NCBI GenBank assembly: GCA_036744835.1
Contig: DAIOHD010000001.1
Coordinates: 611,910 to 675,909, forward strand
Direction of reading: 5' to 3'
Source of the DNA: Candidatus Magasanikiibacteriota bacterium
Lineage (GTDB): Bacteria; Patescibacteriota; Patescibacteriia; Magasanikbacterales; GWA2-37-8
DNA length: 64,000 nucleotides
Shown: piece after piece, positions 5,998-54,408 of the stretch
How positions within the stretch are numbered: position 1 is the stretch's first letter
Layout: every line of letters begins with the position of its first letter
Program-made: the position numbers and the translations under genes
The notes under the pieces: generated by a model
What the model was told of the DNA's origin: nothing
What the model saw: the letters and a program-made list of their open reading frames with translations, nothing else
Databases searched by the model: none

Positions 5998-7320
5998 TTA
6001 CAAATACTGCTCCAATTCCTCCGGACTATCTATAATATTTATCAATTCCCTATCATTATGACCAATAGTTTTAAAATTCAAATACAGGTTATTGATAATT
6101 TCACGCATTGGTTCCCAAAAATCCTTACCGTACAAAACCACTTTGACTCCTGATATTTTATTTGTTTCCATCAAAGTTAGAATTTCAAATAAATTATGCA
6201 TCGTACCAAGCGAACCAGGGAAAAATACTAATACTTCTGAGGACGCCATCAGAGTCATTTTACGCACAAACGGAAAAGAAAAACCAATGGTTTTATTAGT
6301 AAATTTATTTAATATTTCTTTATTTTTTGTTTTCATAAATACCCCGATACTTTTACCGCCATTTTCTATCGCTCCTTTATTGGCTGCTTCCATCATTCCG
6401 GTTCCTCCACCGGTAATAGTGATGTATTCTTTTTTAGCCAACATTTTACCGACTTCATACGCTTCTTCATAATATTTTGTTTTTGCTTTTATTTCTTTTG
6501 TGCCCAAAACTGTCACACTTTTCATTGGTACATTATCAGTCAAAAAATCAAAACTACTCACCAATTCAGACATTATTCTAAACATTCGCCAGTTTATATC
6601 ACCTTGCATATAAGGATTATTAGTAGTTTCTGATTCAATAGAAGTAGCATCTTCTGTTTCTTTAAGCAATTCAAAAGCTTCATCGGCTGTTTCCACAATA
6701 TACCAAGAATCAATTTCTTCTTCTTTGACCGCTTTAATTTTTTTTGCCGATTGTTTTCTAATAAAATCGATCACTGGCTGCCAAAACTCTTTGCCAATTA
6801 AAATTATAGGCGTTTTTTCCATTTGTCCCATTTCTATAGCATCAACTACTTCAAAAAGTTCATCCAATGTCCCAAAACCTCCCGGAAAAAATACAAAACC
6901 ATTGGCTGGAGCAGTCAACATCACTTTACGAGTATAAAAATATTCAAAAGCAATAGCTTTTTTAACATAAGGATTGATACGCTGTTCAAAAGGAAGTTGA
7001 ATATTCAAGCCAATGCTTTCTCCGCCAGCCTCATACGCGCCTTTATTACTAGCTTCCATAATACCTGGTCCGCCGCCGGTTAGTACAGCAAAACCAGCCC
7101 GAGCCAATTTATAACCAAGCTCCTGAGCAATTTTATAATATTTATTATTGGACGGTAATCTGGCCGAGCCCAAAATAGTCACTTCGTTTTTAATTTCTTT
7201 CAAGAACTTTAGACCTTCGATCATTTCTGCCACCATACTAAAAACTTTCCAACTATCACGGAAATTAACTAGCTGACCACCGGTGACTAGGGGTTGATTG
7301 TTGTTTTTATTATTGGACAT
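5998..7320 (-). CDS. Tandem-duplicated LOG family (TIGR00730 / cytokinin riboside 5'-monophosphate phosphoribohydrolase-like) protein
   Basis: Two complete LOG modules in one 440-aa ORF. Each has a Rossmann 'GGGxGxMEAxNKGA' and a 'PGGxGTxxExxE'-like motif (N-half: 'LTGGGPGIMEASNKGAYEAGG...FFPGGFGTLDELFEV'; C-half: 'ITGGGTGMMEAANKGAIENGG...FFPGSLGTMHNLFEI'). Confidence 0.8.
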   Translation of the reverse strand: MSNNKNNNQPLVTGGQLVNFRDSWKVFSMVAEMIEGLKFLKEIKNEVTILGSARLPSNNKYYKIAQELGYKLARAGFAVLTGGGPGIMEASNKGAYEAGGESIGLNIQLPFEQRINPYVKKAIAFEYFYTRKVMLTAPANGFVFFPGGFGTLDELFEVVDAIEMGQMEKTPIILIGKEFWQPVIDFIRKQSAKKIKAVKEEEIDSWYIVETADEAFELLKETEDATSIESETTNNPYMQGDINWRMFRIMSELVSSFDFLTDNVPMKSVTVLGTKEIKAKTKYYEEAYEVGKMLAKKEYITITGGGTGMMEAANKGAIENGGKSIGVFMKTKNKEILNKFTNKTIGFSFPFVRKMTLMASSEVLVFFPGSLGTMHNLFEILTLMETNKISGVKVVLYGKDFWEPMREIINNLYLNFKTIGHNDRELINIIDSPEELEQYL

Positions 7321-32393: not shown

Positions 32394-32505
32394 ATTTTTA
32401 TTGTTAACTTAGTATAACAGAATATAATTAAAAATCAAAAAAAAACCGCCTTGAAAAGCGATTTCGTGAGACGCTAAACATACCGATTACAATGCTTAAG
32501 CGTTG

Positions 32506-32579
32506 TGGGTCCAAGAGGAGTCGAACCTCTGACCTCTACAATGTCAATGTAGCGCTCTAACCAACTGAGCTATGAACCC
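32506..32579 (-). tRNA. tRNA-Val (anticodon GAC)
   Basis: Revcomp folds to acceptor GGGTTCA/TGGACCC, anticodon stem CTACA/TGTAG with loop TTGACAT, and T-arm AGAGG-TTCGACT-CCTCT. Confidence 0.85.
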
Positions 32580-32593
32580 GAGTTTATATATTG

Positions 32594-32667
32594 TGGGCGA
32601 CGGAGGAATCGAACCTCCGACCTCGTCATTATCAGTGACGCGCTCTAACCATCTGAGCTAGTCGCCC
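32594..32667 (-). tRNA. tRNA-Ile (anticodon GAT)
   Basis: Revcomp 'GGGCGACTAGCTCAGATGGTTAGAGCGCGTCACTGATAATGACGAGGTCGGAGGTTCGATTCCTCCGTCGCCCA' has anticodon loop CTGATAA. It sits in the 16S-downstream spacer. Confidence 0.85.
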
Positions 32668-32850
32668 TTTATTTTAAAGTTTCTCCAAAATTATATTACA
32701 AAAAATATTTTTTGGCAAGAGGTTCTACCTTACAAAAACACCCGTTCCGCTGAGCGGGACGGGTGTCTTCTAGTTGACATTACAAAAGTGGTAGGAATAA
32801 CATCCCTGTCGACGAAGATATATTTTTACTTTCATAAAAATCAATCTCCA

Positions 32851-34372
<1,522 letters not shown>

Positions 34373-34922
34373 AAAAAAAGAGTGTTAATCCATTCCAGTA
34401 TGAATACTGAAAAATTGGATTTACTAAAATTATTTTATAGAATAGATTTCGATAATAAATTATCGAAAACTTCAGTGGATGTTTTCTTACCACATTTGTA
34501 TTGTCAACGTACTTTCTTCCTAAAATTTTTAGAAAGAAAAAAGAGAAACCCAAAAATTGAAGTTGCTCTTTTCTCTTTCCAGTATCCATCTTGACAGGAC
34601 TTAGAAGATTGTTAAATTGTAGAGTTGCGTTTTTGCCTTTATTTGGGTTAATTTTTGTAAGAGAAATATAACAATTATTTAGCTTATTGTCAAGGAAGCC
34701 ATCTGTGGATAACTCCCTGTTTATTATACAAACAATTTTGGCTTATTCTAGGAGAATTTTAACAACCAACTAAAAATTACAAATTCAAAATTATAAGCTC
34801 CAAATAAATCCCAAATAATTAAAATTTAAAATACCAAACTCCTGTGTTTTGTTTTGAATTTTATATTTTGGATTTAGTGTTTATTTAGGGTTTGTAATTT
34901 TGAATTTGTAATTTAATATTTT

Positions 34923-40865: not shown

Positions 40866-40951
40866 ATGTATATTATGTAGTATGTATTATGTATTAAGTA
40901 TCATGTATACATGGGTTACTACATAATTCATACTACATACTACATAATACA
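40866..40951. repeat. Long imperfect inverted repeat of TATGTA/TACATA units between nrnA and clpP
   Basis: Left arm TATTATGTAGTATGTATTATGTA (40871-40893). Right arm TACATAATTCATACTACATACTACATAATAC (40919-40950), near-perfect revcomp. Centre at CATGTATACATG. Confidence 0.7.
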
Positions 40952-40982
40952 AAATGCTTTATATAAAAATAAATTAAAAAAT

Positions 40983-41600
40983 ATGAATGATACAAAAAAA
41001 ATAGAAAATACAAATCTAAATTCCCAATTCCTCGTTCCCACCGTCGTTGAAAAAACATCCTACGGCGAAAGAGCCTTTGATATTTACTCTCGCTTGCTTC
41101 AAGACCGTATAATTTTTATCAGCAGTCCGATAGACGACCACGTCGCCTCTGTGGTTATTGCCCAACTTTTATTTTTGGACAACCAAAATCCGGATAAAGA
41201 TATCAAACTCTATATCAATTCCCCAGGCGGTTCGGTAACAGCCGGTATGGCAATTTATGATACCATGCAATATCTCAAATCTGACGTCTCCACTATCTGT
41301 ATCGGTATGGCTGCCAGCATGGCTGCAGTATTACTTGCTGCTGGAGCAAAAGGTAAACGTTTTTCTCTTCCCAATTCCGAAGTTATGATCCATCAAGTTA
41401 TGGGTGGCATGGAAGGACAAGCCAGTGATATCAAAATCCATGCGGAGAGAATCATCAACATGAAAGAAAGACTTAATAAAATTTTAGCCAAACACACCGG
41501 ACAAACCATATCGATAGTTGAAAAAGATACCGACCGCGATCACTTCATGTCCGCTCTTGAGGCTAAAAAATACGGACTGGTGGATAAGGTTATTGAATAA
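40983..41600 (+). CDS. clpP: ATP-dependent Clp protease proteolytic subunit
   Basis: '[17 protein letters not shown]', '[14 protein letters not shown]' (active Ser), 'MIHQ' (His). Start moved to 'MNDTKKIEN' because the track's N-terminus lies inside the inverted repeat. Confidence 0.9.
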
Positions 41601-41650: not shown

Positions 41651-41669
41651 ATATTTCTAAACAGCCCCC

Positions 41670-41699
41670 TTGACAAAACCTCCAAAGTATGCTATACTA
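41670..41699 (+). promoter_or_regulatory. Consensus sigma70 promoter TTGACA-18-TATACT driving a non-coding transcript
   Basis: TTGACA at 41670-41675 and TATACT at 41694-41699. No ORF follows on the plus strand. Confidence 0.55.
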
Positions 41700-41705
41700 T
41701 GAAGT

Positions 41706-41932
41706 TGCTAAATAACGTGGTAACACGAGCTTTGGCCACGGAAAAATACTTTGTTTTTTAAAAAAAGTATCTTTCCGTATCAGACAAGCATGGAAGATAG
41801 ATTATCGGGAGTATTTGGCTCAGGCTGAGTCTTTTCAATGATCTATCTTCTCGATACGGATTACCAAGGGGGGGAGACCCTCCCCCAAAAAGTAATAACC
41901 CCCGCCCAAGTAATTGGGCGGGGTTTTATTTT
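41706..41932 (+). ncRNA. Candidate structured small RNA (~227 nt) of unassigned family (6S-like long interrupted hairpin?)
   Basis: The region is GC-enriched relative to its surroundings. It has a long nested stem: CCGTATC...GATACGG enclosing AGATAGAT...ATCTATCT, plus GGGGGGGAGACCCTCCCCC. It ends with the intrinsic terminator CCCCGCCCAAGTAATTGGGCGGGG+T-tract (41899-41935). The next gene is on the opposite strand. Confidence 0.4.
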
Positions 41933-41954
41933 ATTTCAAAAATTAATATTTACT

Positions 41955-43925
41955 TTAAAGACTTTCTAAAATAATTTCACTATCTGGTGTTGTTGTTACG
42001 TCTATGGTTTCTTCACTTGGTGTACTGGTAGACACAAGAGATGGGCCAACTAAACACAACTTTGGCAACGGTCGATAATTGCTAGTAAAAACTCTATCTA
42101 TTTTTTCACTGGTAGATGTAAATCTGGTATAAATAAAACTACTTATAGCTCCACGAAAAGCATTTTGACACTTTTCTTCTCCCGGAGCTAATTCTGAGCT
42201 TACTACTTCCTTGGGTTCACCGGCCGGAATCCATTTCGAAACCAAAGGACTGGTATAAGAACCAAATCTGCCGTCGGATTTTCCCCAAAGAGAAAAAGTT
42301 AAAATTTGTTTTTTATAATCTATTTTTGCTTGTAACAATAAATATCCTCCAGTGTCATTTTTAAATTTTAAATCCAAGAAAGGATCGTAAAGCGCAGCGT
42401 CTGTCCCCGGATTTTTATTGATTGGATCGGCATAATAGTTCACCACCAAAGAATGATTATGACGCTCTAAAATATCCATACCGGAATTCATCGCCATACG
42501 AAAAAGTGTAGTTCCTATTTGGCACATTCCACCACCAACCTCTTTGACAATTCTATCGCCTTTGATAATTTCTTCAGGCAAATAACCGTTTTCCAAAGTA
42601 AAAGGACCAGCAAATTTAATCGCAGAAAAAACTTCATCCGGCGCTACCAAAACTCCATTAAGCAATTCAACAGCATGGGCGATGTTTTTTATACGATTGG
42701 TATGGCTATCATAAAAGGTGGAAGTACCCGTACCAATAAGATCATCAATGCCCAAATCATTTAAATCAGTTAATCTTATTTGTGATTCAACTTTTTCCGT
42801 TACCAAAAACAAGGTTGTACTGACATTGTTACAAACTCCATTCTTAAAATAATTTTCTACATTTTGTTTGGTTTTTTCCAAATTCAAACTTAAACCAACT
42901 TCTTGTTCTTTAAATTCTTTTACTTTGCCGTTAATAATGGTAAATTTTGGATTTTGAACCGGAATATCAATAATTTCTTTTAAGCTCTTCAAATAATTTT
43001 CAAATTTTTCTCCAACTAAAGTAAAATATAATTCTCCATTTTCTTTTTTATCAGCCACTAACCAGCTATTGAGTTCGGCCGCACGTAAAGTGAAACTATT
43101 ACGTCTACCCGTAGGAGCGTCGTAAACAAAAGACAAATCTCCACAGCTAACTATTTCTTCAAGTTGCCCTTTCACATCCTGTAAATCACTTGCTAATACT
43201 TTTGGCAAAAAATAATACCTTTCTATTTTAATATCCGCCAAATTTAAAATTTTTAAATTATTTTCCGTGTCAAAAATAATTTTTTCATAATCAAAAACCT
43301 GTCCGGCTCTATCAGGAATAACCTCATATTGTAACGGGTTTGACAATATTATTTTAATATTGGCATTATTGGCTTTATCTTCTATTTTATCCAAAATGTC
43401 ATGAAGGTTGTTTTTAAATTTATCTTTATCAAATCTAATTTCAAATTCAACTTTTTTATTTTTAAAAACCAAAATCAAAGGTGAAACATACTTCTGCCAA
43501 TTATCTTTTTCTCTGCCCAAATTCATAACCTTTTCCACAAAATCATCGGTGTAAAAGGTGATAAGAGGTAAACTATCCTCTCCCAAAGCCCAAATAGTTT
43601 CTACTCGAAAATCTTTTCTTTTATTATCTTCAATCAAATAATAATTTAAATCTTCTTTTACTAAGCGATTATTTAAATTTTCCACGAATTCTTTTACTTC
43701 TTCTTTTTCCATTCCTCCTAAATTATATTCTCCTAGAAAAACTCCCGGATAAACTTTGTTGATATGTTTTTGATAATACAAATAAGCACTTACAGAAGCA
43801 CAACCGAAAAAAAATAAAACCGCGATTAAAATTTTAAAAAATATTTTTAATCCCGATTTTTCTAAATTTTGATTTTGTTCCGACCCTCCCCCGGTCAGGA
43901 TATTTTCCATATTATTCTTCAACAA
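41955..43925 (-). CDS. VanW-family protein with N-terminal membrane anchor
   Basis: N-terminal TM segment. 'GGGMCQIGTTLFRMAMNSGMDILERHNHS' matches the VanW domain core (GGGVCQxSTTLYNA...ERHNHS). Confidence 0.7.
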   Translation of the reverse strand: MLKNNMENILTGGGSEQNQNLEKSGLKIFFKILIAVLFFFGCASVSAYLYYQKHINKVYPGVFLGEYNLGGMEKEEVKEFVENLNNRLVKEDLNYYLIEDNKRKDFRVETIWALGEDSLPLITFYTDDFVEKVMNLGREKDNWQKYVSPLILVFKNKKVEFEIRFDKDKFKNNLHDILDKIEDKANNANIKIILSNPLQYEVIPDRAGQVFDYEKIIFDTENNLKILNLADIKIERYYFLPKVLASDLQDVKGQLEEIVSCGDLSFVYDAPTGRRNSFTLRAAELNSWLVADKKENGELYFTLVGEKFENYLKSLKEIIDIPVQNPKFTIINGKVKEFKEQEVGLSLNLEKTKQNVENYFKNGVCNNVSTTLFLVTEKVESQIRLTDLNDLGIDDLIGTGTSTFYDSHTNRIKNIAHAVELLNGVLVAPDEVFSAIKFAGPFTLENGYLPEEIIKGDRIVKEVGGGMCQIGTTLFRMAMNSGMDILERHNHSLVVNYYADPINKNPGTDAALYDPFLDLKFKNDTGGYLLLQAKIDYKKQILTFSLWGKSDGRFGSYTSPLVSKWIPAGEPKEVVSSELAPGEEKCQNAFRGAISSFIYTRFTSTSEKIDRVFTSNYRPLPKLCLVGPSLVSTSTPSEETIDVTTTPDSEIILESL

Positions 43926-44343: not shown

Positions 44344-44443
44344 ATTTTTTATACAAAAAACTACCTAAATCAGGTAATTTTATTATACAATAAATAAAGA
44401 AAAGAGGCAAAACTATTTGATCGCTCCTCTCCTTATTTTAAAA

Positions 44444-44472
44444 TCCGCCCTTACGGGCAGATTTTTTCATGC
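44444..44472. terminator. Bidirectional-looking intrinsic terminator hairpin (CCGCCC-TTAC-GGGCAG) flanked by A/T runs
   Basis: A-run upstream and a T6 run downstream on the plus strand. Revcomp gives a U-tract for minus-strand transcripts reading in from the island side. Confidence 0.45.
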
Positions 44473-44782
44473 AGAGAGGGAGGGCCATTCGAAGTCGTCG
44501 TCCGCCAGTTGGCAGATTCCTCTTTGGAAAACCTTCGGGTTCTTCAACTCCTTTCCTCAGCGAGAGAAAACTCCCGTTTTCTCCCTTTCCCATTCGAATC
44601 CCTTTTCCTATCAAATTAAAAAATAAACAGGAATATTCCTATTTATTTTTCATGCGGTGTAGTCGGGTTAAGTACCCATAACTTCAATGTTTATAAGGGT
44701 ATTTTAGCACGAAAATAGCTATGCTGACCAGGCATATGGGTCGGGGTCTGGCTTTCAGAAAATGCGACAAATGCGACAGTAC

Positions 44783-54111: not shown

Positions 54112-54408
54112 AGAACCCCGCGCCAGCTAGACCTTACGGTCCCATACCAGTTTCCCGATATGACCCAACGAAGAGTCGCTGAACGCGGGGTTCAGTATCT
54201 TCGTTGGGGTTTCCCGACCATATCCTTTGGAAAACCAAAGGGGTTAGGTCGCTGGTCTTTCGGCCAGTAATATTAAATTGTTAAGTACATTTTACCAGAA
54301 AATCCAAGGGATTTAAAGGCCTCTGTACTTTAGCTTAATAACAGGGGTTTGCGAAGCCTAAGTTACCAACAACTTATCTACTCGGGACGCTCTGGACTCC
54401 TTTGAGGA

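Follow-up and report, generated by a model that had tools for sequence, protein, structure and literature searches.

Which RNA is made from the gap that separates clpP from the converging vanW in a 64-kb stretch of DNA from Candidatus Magasanikiibacteriota (the window, whose positions serve as coordinates throughout), and what might such an RNA do in the cell? We show that this gap contains an autonomous small RNA (sRNA) gene at 41670-41936 (+) with a predicted transcript of about 225 nt, and that homologues exist at 143 loci with 133 distinct cores, 26 loci being derived from genomes and at least 120 metagenome contigs carrying members. Conservation in relatives, on which the initial annotation had made its proposal of a structured RNA depend, is thus observed, and we regard it as nearly certain that these loci constitute a real and new RNA family. 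The RNA is stand-alone and under selection for the fold of one strand, having an invariant loop, two G.U sites and a fixed spacing between them. According to the reading we tentatively favour, it would be a structured bacterial sRNA of the ribonucleoprotein (RNP) type.

The covariation analysis on homologous regions, suggested together with the initial annotation, gives strong compensatory support for the fold. RNAalifold finds compensatory changes at 21 of 29 pairs in a 24-sequence set, which was assembled by nhmmer homology and exact match to the invariant ACAAGCAUGG. Among 129 distinct sequences, double changes occur at 25 of 32 pairs and 87.3% of the cells are pairing cells compared to 40-48% if the partners are slid by 1-3 columns, while the covariation score is 0.535 compared to 0.11-0.15 for the slid partners; none of 500 shuffles reaches the observed values. 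G.U cells exceed A.C cells (630 vs 141), G.U being invariant at two pairs, and the transcribed strand is therefore the plus strand of the window. From 24 sequences we built a covariance model, R1, which recovers 26 forward matches with 65-104 bits, any reverse-strand match to a member scoring at most 28 bits. R1 recognises the window copy at 41769-41874 (65.6 bits, E = 1e-14) as the lowest-scoring member, and this copy falls within the definition of the model, i.e. P1, a ACGACAAGCAU/UU-type loop, P2, P3/P4, a GGC-UNCG-GCU apex and a length of 86-91 nt. The plus strand folds with -90.8 kcal/mol (z = -7.6; equalled by 0 of 200 dinucleotide shuffles), the minus-strand fold of the RNA region giving z = -6.1.

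An unbranched rod of 86-91 nt is the sole part conserved across the family. In the window it is composed of the following elements:

41774-41860 (+): conserved core rod, which defines the family; unbranched, 87 nt in the window
41774-41781 / 41853-41860 (+): P1, 8 bp, freely covarying in the family
41782-41791, opposite C41852 (+): asymmetric loop J1/2, AGACAAGCAU in the window version
41792-41805 / 41838-41851 (+): P2, GGAAGATAGAT.../...ATCTATCTTCT in DNA and AGAUAGAU/AUCUAUCU as RNA
41807-41811 / 41832-41836 (+): P3/P4, with P3 of the UAGG/CCUA type; a small internal loop separates P2 from P3
41813-41819 / 41824-41830 (+): apical P5, with the loop UCAG at 41820-41823

The nested helices described initially are real, CCGTATC/GATACGG (CCGUAUC/GAUACGG in RNA) corresponding to P1 at 41775-41781 / 41853-41859 and enclosing P2. 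In the family, the internal loop between P1 and P2 reads 5'-ACGACAAGCAU-3' opposite UU, i.e. 11 nt x 2 nt. The base of P2 is invariant (G-C, G.U, R-U, G-C; GGRGR/YCUUC) and its upper 6 bp covary. Beyond the internal loop, the helical arm has a constant length of about 27 base-pair equivalents, the P2-P5 arm measuring about 67 nt, and the P1-to-P1 span is 86-91 nt in 129 of 129 sequences. The arm is capped by a hairpin C-R-G-G-C/UNCG/G-C-U-C-G (GGC-UNCG-GCU) containing an invariant G.U, the apical loop being of the UNCG type (UCCG, UUCG or UACG) in about two thirds of the members. The nhmmer homologues have CCACGACAAGCAUGG..., GGC-UNCG-GCU and ...CUUCUUGG in common. Metagenome members were picked by a pattern consisting of the loop and CUUCUUG, and letter invariance is meaningful solely in the genome-derived set; among the 22 genome-derived members listed, the full CACGACAAGCAUGG is found in 19 and ACAAGCAUGG in all 22. 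The window copy is slightly atypical, AGACAAGCAU being one C short and CUUCUCG standing in place of CUUCUUG.

The rod is embedded in a complete transcription unit, delimited in the window by two elements:

41670-41698 (+): sigma-70-type promoter, strong and of constitutive type, with the -35 box TTGACA at 41670-41675, a 17-nt spacer and the extended -10 element TGcTATACT at 41690-41698
41900-41936 (+): intrinsic terminator, whose 10-bp stem (41900-41923) includes 8 G-C pairs and precedes UUUUAUUUUAUUU

The promoter, previously read as TTGACA-18-TATACT, is present with 11 of 12 matches plus the extended -10 TG in a promoter scan, the -10 box TATACT occupying 41693-41698; its spacer, however, measures 17 and not 18 nt. 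Promoters this near to consensus number 17 in the 64-kb window compared to 5.5 in shuffles, and the promoter position would place the RNA start site at about 41704-41706. The strong terminator was likewise recognised correctly, as the stem at 41900-41923 and its U-run. It scores on the minus strand too, 31 nt from the stop codon of vanW (41955-41957), and transcription of hsp20-vanW probably stops there as well. Open reading frames (ORFs) of at least 30 aa are absent from the RNA gene except for one non-conserved 43-aa ORF starting in the P2 3' strand, in agreement with the initial statement that no ORF follows the promoter. We rejected a small-ORF coding role, since the ATG frames after the -10 box vary among members (4, 16, 20 codons) and covariation in P2 is at the level of nucleotides. 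We also discarded a repeat or mobile element: the RNA has no second copy within the 64-kb window and its exact pattern gives 0 matches among viral contigs. The G+C content, described as markedly above that of the flanks, is 0.34-0.46 and exceeds that of the adjoining AT-rich spacers (0.27-0.31) but not that of the neighbouring coding DNA (0.36-0.45), making this claim only weakly true.

In genomes, the family occurs among ultra-small bacteria of groundwater, namely Candidatus Magasanikbacteria, Uhrbacteria and related Patescibacteria; its exact pattern is moreover present in at least 120 metagenome contigs, which come from groundwater, sediment and comparable environments. Magasanikbacteria and Uhrbacteria are separate candidate phyla in the Parcubacteria group by NCBI taxonomy, the family thus reaching at least two candidate phyla. 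The suggestion of a lineage-specific sRNA was therefore essentially right, with its breadth understated. Using 41660-41940 as nhmmer query against 80 clpP loci, we identified homologues close to the clpP gene of a dozen relatives, encoded on the clpP strand in some and on the opposite one in others, and nhmmer and the covariance model together give homologues in 25 of the 80 loci. The closest relatives of the window ClpP are from Candidatus Magasanikbacteria and other Patescibacteria, and the whole RNA gene is identical in an independent public assembly (L081). In the searchable literature, we found neither a description of the motif nor surveys of non-coding RNAs in bacteria of the candidate phyla radiation (CPR).

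Does the RNA belong to a known family nonetheless? Rfam 15 gives no match over the whole core (41774-41860), even at E=10. The window was scanned at gathering score, the region and the consensus-like member L012 at E<=10, ten homologous loci at E<=0.05 and 141 kb of related contigs at gathering score. These scans returned terminator noise (about 41860-41980 in the window), tRNAs and 16S rRNA, the core being overlapped only by fragmentary noise far under the gathering score of each family. The Rfam check recommended initially thus yields no match on the RNA for 6S, signal recognition particle (SRP) RNA, transfer-messenger RNA (tmRNA) or RNase P RNA, and together with ARAGORN and motif searches it bears out the view that the RNA is none of the latter three. 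For tmRNA, ARAGORN reports only four tRNAs in the window and no Rfam tmRNA match is found at the RNA; the relative L013 has the 3' end of a separate tmRNA gene at 6577-6615 (-), about 2.7 kb from its RNA (17.6 bits, cut by the locus end). RNase P RNA was rejected because the rod is unbranched, without branch points or P4-type elements, and gives no match even at E<=10. The RNA is comparable to orphan structured RNAs of uncultivated bacteria such as LOOT RNA (RF03000), i.e. covariation-backed motifs of unknown function encountered in environmental genomes only. It differs from LOOT RNA in sequence and structure, in being without an Rfam model, in having its own promoter and terminator and in its fixed address beside the gene of a VanW-type L,D-transpeptidase. 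The window contains a full-length LOOT RNA at 54129-54250 (-), scoring 83.1 bits compared to a gathering score of 46.4, as another orphan structured RNA.

This address was analysed in the window and across the family. Pfam assigns the gene order SMC (-), DHH/DHHA1 (+), ClpP (+, 40911-41600), the RNA (+), VanW with PG_binding_4 (-, 41955-43925) and Hsp20 (-) to the window. The VanW domain was recently shown to represent a peptidoglycan L,D-transpeptidase family (PMC11348318). Within 3 kb of 119 metagenome loci selected by the RNA pattern, VanW is found 91 times, ClpP 62 times, Hsp20 55 times and DHH 40 times. All 143 loci were oriented on the RNA and the tblastn matches to the window ClpP and VanW within 3.5 kb were counted, resulting in these arrangements:

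43 loci: clpP upstream on the same strand, then the RNA, then vanW converging on it (as in the window)
31 loci: vanW converging downstream of the RNA, clpP not nearby
28 loci: vanW upstream on the same strand, then the RNA, then clpP converging on it
10 loci: vanW upstream on the same strand, clpP not nearby
15 loci: clpP match alone, upstream in 11 (8 on the same strand, 3 on the opposite one) and converging downstream in 4
1 locus: clpP upstream on the opposite strand, vanW converging downstream
15 loci: neither clpP nor vanW within 3.5 kb

The RNA points at vanW in 75 loci (44 having an upstream clpP match) and lies downstream of vanW in 38, converging on clpP in 28 of them. A downstream clpP or vanW relative converges on the RNA in every such case (108 of 143), the other 35 having an upstream neighbour only or none. 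The RNA is therefore consistently located next to the vanW 3' end, mostly with clpP converging from the other side and in either orientation, and VanW, not clpP, is its most faithful neighbour. Where clpP is not the other neighbour, the genes in its place vary and, as judged by eye, resemble those for a Nif3-like protein, RuvB, a cation-efflux transporter and SufC. As the same gap is used in both orientations with the downstream gene converging, the RNA is an autonomous gene and not a 5' leader, in line with the initial annotation; its own promoter is present in both orientations. A cis-regulatory leader or riboswitch position was rejected accordingly, no clpP or vanW relative being found downstream on the same strand in the 143 loci. 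That the RNA is constantly placed behind the hsp20-vanW operon, at its 3' end, may point to a link with envelope or proteostasis genes, and the vanW linkage may be either functional or inherited synteny. VanW itself was discarded as RNA-binding partner, its protein sequence consisting of a short cytoplasmic N-terminus, one membrane helix and an otherwise extracytoplasmic remainder.

Outside the rod, the window RNA has accessory parts:

41707-41778 (+): variable 5' accessory domain in the minimum free energy (MFE) fold; neither its length nor its sequence is conserved among members
41707-41712 / 41731-41736 (+): 5' stem in the MFE fold, enclosing a GUAA-loop hairpin at 41716-41727
41738-41744 / 41772-41778 and 41746-41752 / 41764-41770 (+): two-part hairpin H2, the lower stem of which competes with P1
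41868-41886 (+): G-rich accessory hairpin H4, GGGGGGG-AGACC-CUCCCCC in the P1-constrained fold; lineage-specific

The last of these is the G7/C5 hairpin noticed at the outset. Neither the 5' hairpins nor the G-rich hairpin nor the separate terminator of the window is constant among members. A promoter of the form TTGAC-N-T(A/G)NNNT is present 35-164 nt upstream of the core/loop in 98 of 143 loci, and the leaders range from almost none (about 20 nt) to about 150 nt, minimal members having a total length of about 125-135 nt. In Uhrbacteria-type members, an outer helix P0 lengthens the rod and is directly followed by a U-tract, whereas Magasanikbacteria-type members, including the window, have a local 3' hairpin and a separate terminator instead of P0. 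The leaders of several Magasanikbacteria-type members (L008, L018, L002-L004, L007) have, farther upstream, a second copy of the P1 5' strand together with ACGA (CUCUGUAUCCACGA...), and this copy pairs with a GGAUAUAGAG segment, resulting in a second P1-to-loop-like domain and an attenuator-like arrangement of four segments.

What could this RNA do? The reading we put first, while holding it with less than even confidence, is that of a trans-acting, protein-docking rod RNA, which would act as a subunit or decoy of an RNP. Protein docking is favoured because the invariant loop, the invariant G.U pairs and the fixed spacing resemble SRP, 6S and Y RNAs, in which a rod with a single conserved internal loop is used in this manner. 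The protein would dock primarily at the invariant loop and the P2 base and make a second contact at the apical G.U hairpin, the rod fixing the distance between both, while the variable 5' hairpins and the 3' hairpin/terminator would only stabilise the transcript and terminate its synthesis. Seed-type sRNAs conserve a single strand and leave the structure free, and riboswitches are built from junctions and are located upstream of genes; by this comparison, the pattern of our RNA appears unlike either class. Y RNAs and other protein-docking rod RNAs share with it a stem carrying a conserved bulged or looped protein-binding site beside variable modules; no Ro/Rsr gene is nearby, however, and a tRNA-like module as well as sequence similarity are missing, leaving the likeness architectural only. 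A more specific version, which we advance with yet greater reserve, would be the RNA subunit or decoy of a new RNP that serves as a housekeeping RNP of a whole branch of the CPR (Magasanikbacteria, Uhrbacteria and relatives), is recognised via the 11 x 2 loop and either replaces a 6S-type control of the polymerase or belongs to a new particle tied to the VanW L,D-transpeptidase, Hsp20 and ClpP.

Several observations weigh against the RNA being such a docking rod. Among the 80 clpP loci, the RNA is found in 22 of 22 having vanW and in none without it, and a VanW-family ORF is the main neighbour within 900 nt in 101 of the 143 loci; a generic trans-acting RNP does not explain this lasting adjacency. 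In 34 of 143 members, a U-run comes right after the rod, which is then itself the terminator. In the window, the MFE structure containing H2 (-89.4 kcal/mol) is preferred to the P1-constrained fold (-87.1 kcal/mol) by 2.3 kcal/mol, and leaders pair with the P1 5' strand at z < -2 in about 20% of the members. In these structure predictions, the leader-P1 pairing and the H2 alternative hint at a conformational switch. A universal leader/P1 switch was rejected, the pairing being significant in only that fraction of members and the family median of z being about 0.

As the rod resembles those of 6S and SRP RNAs, identity with either has to be weighed. A divergent 6S-type RNA would mimic an open promoter and sequester the sigma-A RNA polymerase holoenzyme, with P2-P5 representing the upstream DNA, the loop the transcription bubble or template and P1/P0 the downstream DNA. 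With 6S RNA (ssrS, RF00013 and relatives) the family shares the organisation of a rod sRNA running from promoter to terminator, a promoter predicting abundance, one conserved internal loop and a P2-P5 arm of constrained length, its about 67 nt being close to the size of the terminal arm of E. coli 6S RNA. The weak G.U pairs at the P2 base would suit this role, and a 6S RNA is not found elsewhere in the 64-kb window by the Rfam gathering scan. The resemblance mentioned in the initial annotation nevertheless failed on closer comparison. The conserved loop has 11 nt on the 5' and 2 nt on the 3' side instead of a large two-sided bubble, resulting in no non-template strand to present -10-like bases, and the flanking pairs R24-U88 and 26-86 vary as true pairs. 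A closing stem of a rod of about 150-200 nt is missing: the rod closes locally (P1/P0), the 5' end and leaders of about 20-150 nt lie outside of it, and the minimal members are too small. A loop sequence invariant across candidate phyla, as in the new family, is not known from 6S RNAs. No 6S model matched at gathering score in the window, at E<=10 with the window region and L012 as short queries, or at E<=0.05 in the ten homologous loci. CPR housekeeping RNAs, including RNase P RNAs, are reported to escape standard models and to slip under Rfam thresholds (PMC8172020), and because of this divergence we retain a small residual probability for a 6S-like role, which overall we judge to be unlikely. 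A highly divergent form of the bacterial small SRP RNA (4.5S, RF00169) is a far weaker candidate and in our view very improbable. It would be a hairpin of similar size (about 100-130 nt) with an asymmetric loop having its long side on the 5' strand and with conserved features at two sites of the rod, and Rfam scans and motif searches for SRP RNA gave nothing convincing in the window or 1.4 Mb of related loci, an absence that says little as only about 1.4 ffs genes are expected by chance in the searched DNA. The apex of our family, however, is of the UNCG type in about two thirds of members and not a GNAR tetraloop, it has neither a symmetric loop nor AGCA or GGAA motifs near it, and the AGG/AGCA loops of domain IV are absent. 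The conserved loop is basal, about 35 nt away from the apex instead of adjoining it, and the Rfam SRP models give no match, including at E<=10. The sole SRP regex match is the reverse strand of member L006 and was dismissed because the G.U statistics fix the opposite strand.

Other explanations assign the function to base pairing or to the position of the gene. As a cis-antisense module, the RNA would tune the stability of the hsp20-vanW or clpP mRNA via overlapping 3' ends or read-through duplexes, its target being the converging vanW in about two thirds of the loci and clpP in the rest. The location in a convergent gap, the association with vanW in 22 of 22 loci and the bidirectional reading of the window terminator support this, and vanW transcripts must often enter the RNA gene because the core ends so close to the vanW stop (median distance 87 nt, minimum 20 nt). 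Selection acts on the fold of one strand, however, and an invariant loop, G.U pairs and a fixed length are needless for antisense action. The orientation moreover flips, so that the supposed target changes, and the rod is not a general bidirectional terminator, as a U-run directly follows only 34 of 143 rods and an upstream A-run is present in only 2 of these 34. We attach a low probability to this explanation, and an equally low one to a trans base-pairing sRNA, which would use the single-stranded ACGACAAGCAU as seed or the CUUCUU strand as mimic of an anti-Shine-Dalgarno sequence. The invariant 11-nt stretch is predicted to be unpaired, its complement includes AUG and the promoter-to-terminator layout is sRNA-like. 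Yet, the loop complement is not enriched in the window (18 sites vs 11.9 expected, none at a gene start), does not recur at any consistent place in 1.4 Mb of related loci and is weaker than shuffled queries against 16S rRNA, and a strict rod length together with conservation of distant apical pairs is unusual for seed-type sRNAs. Less probable again is an attenuator responding to a ligand or factor, in which binding to the loop would stabilise P1/P0, the terminator of some members; in the alternative state, the P1 5' strand would be trapped by a 3'-strand mimic located upstream, and read-through into the converging gene would produce antisense RNA. Leader mimics of the P1/P0 3' strand are recognisable by eye in L027, L036, L041 and L043, and the four-segment arrangement of L008 and L018, the fifth of leaders pairing with the P1 5' strand and the near-isoenergetic alternative folds in the window also agree with it. 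Speaking against it, most members are without such a leader, as the median z of about 0 indicates, leaders of minimal members are too short to compete, no clpP or vanW relative follows on the same strand, and an unbranched rod would be an unusual aptamer. The protein-docking rod thus remains the reading we tentatively prefer.

Further observations concern the neighbouring genes and other parts of the window. An AT-rich inverted repeat at 40871-40949 with 30-nt arms (40871-40900 / 40920-40949; 90% complementary) spans the annotated clpP start at 40911. Homology of ClpP to its relatives mostly starts at about residue 20-40, so the true clpP start may be later and the repeat is maybe an operator or a structure of the 5' untranslated region. 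The clpP active-site codons (G-x-A-A-S-M-G; about 41309-41325), reading GCUGCCAGCAUGGCU in the window and GCGGCAAGCAUGG in L045, L064, L076 and L156, resemble the invariant ACGACAAGCAUGG of the RNA on the same strand; this likeness is probably a coincidence but could reflect mimicry or how the motif originated. A GC-richer spacer of about 200 nt at 44435-44640 (-), which separates hsp20 from an unannotated 219-aa ORF, ends in a strong terminator at about 44441-44466; it was rejected as a second RNA, with a fold z of only -2.5, no Rfam family and no nhmmer homologue in related loci. The 16S rRNA gene at 32505-34378 (-; 1419.9 bits) has a 41-nt insertion compared to 8 nt in the model near position 80, and the tRNAs behind it are tRNA-Ile(GAU) and tRNA-Val(GAC) instead of an Ile/Ala pair. 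As the 64 kb contain no 23S rRNA, the rRNA genes appear to be unlinked, which has been reported for many CPR genomes (PMC8172020). Two related loci have GCAAGUCCGAAAGGAAACUGC in common (L157 at about 10246, L192 at about 12328), about 300 nt upstream of the 16S rRNA 5' end, which may be a conserved rRNA leader element.

As a summary, we provide a structured RNA family for a part of the bacterial tree in which very few non-coding RNAs are known. CPR bacteria/Patescibacteria account for a large part of the diversity of bacteria; their genomes are tiny and hardly any of them has been cultivated. For the new family, a covariance model that works, well-defined boundaries and an obvious target for mutation, the loop, are available, making the search for its partner testable, and the model would improve the annotation of many metagenome-assembled genomes. 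The RNA is retained across at least two candidate phyla and at least 120 contigs, and its invariant loop, fixed length and address are kept in genomes shorn of most regulators, for which reason an important function in these bacteria is likely.

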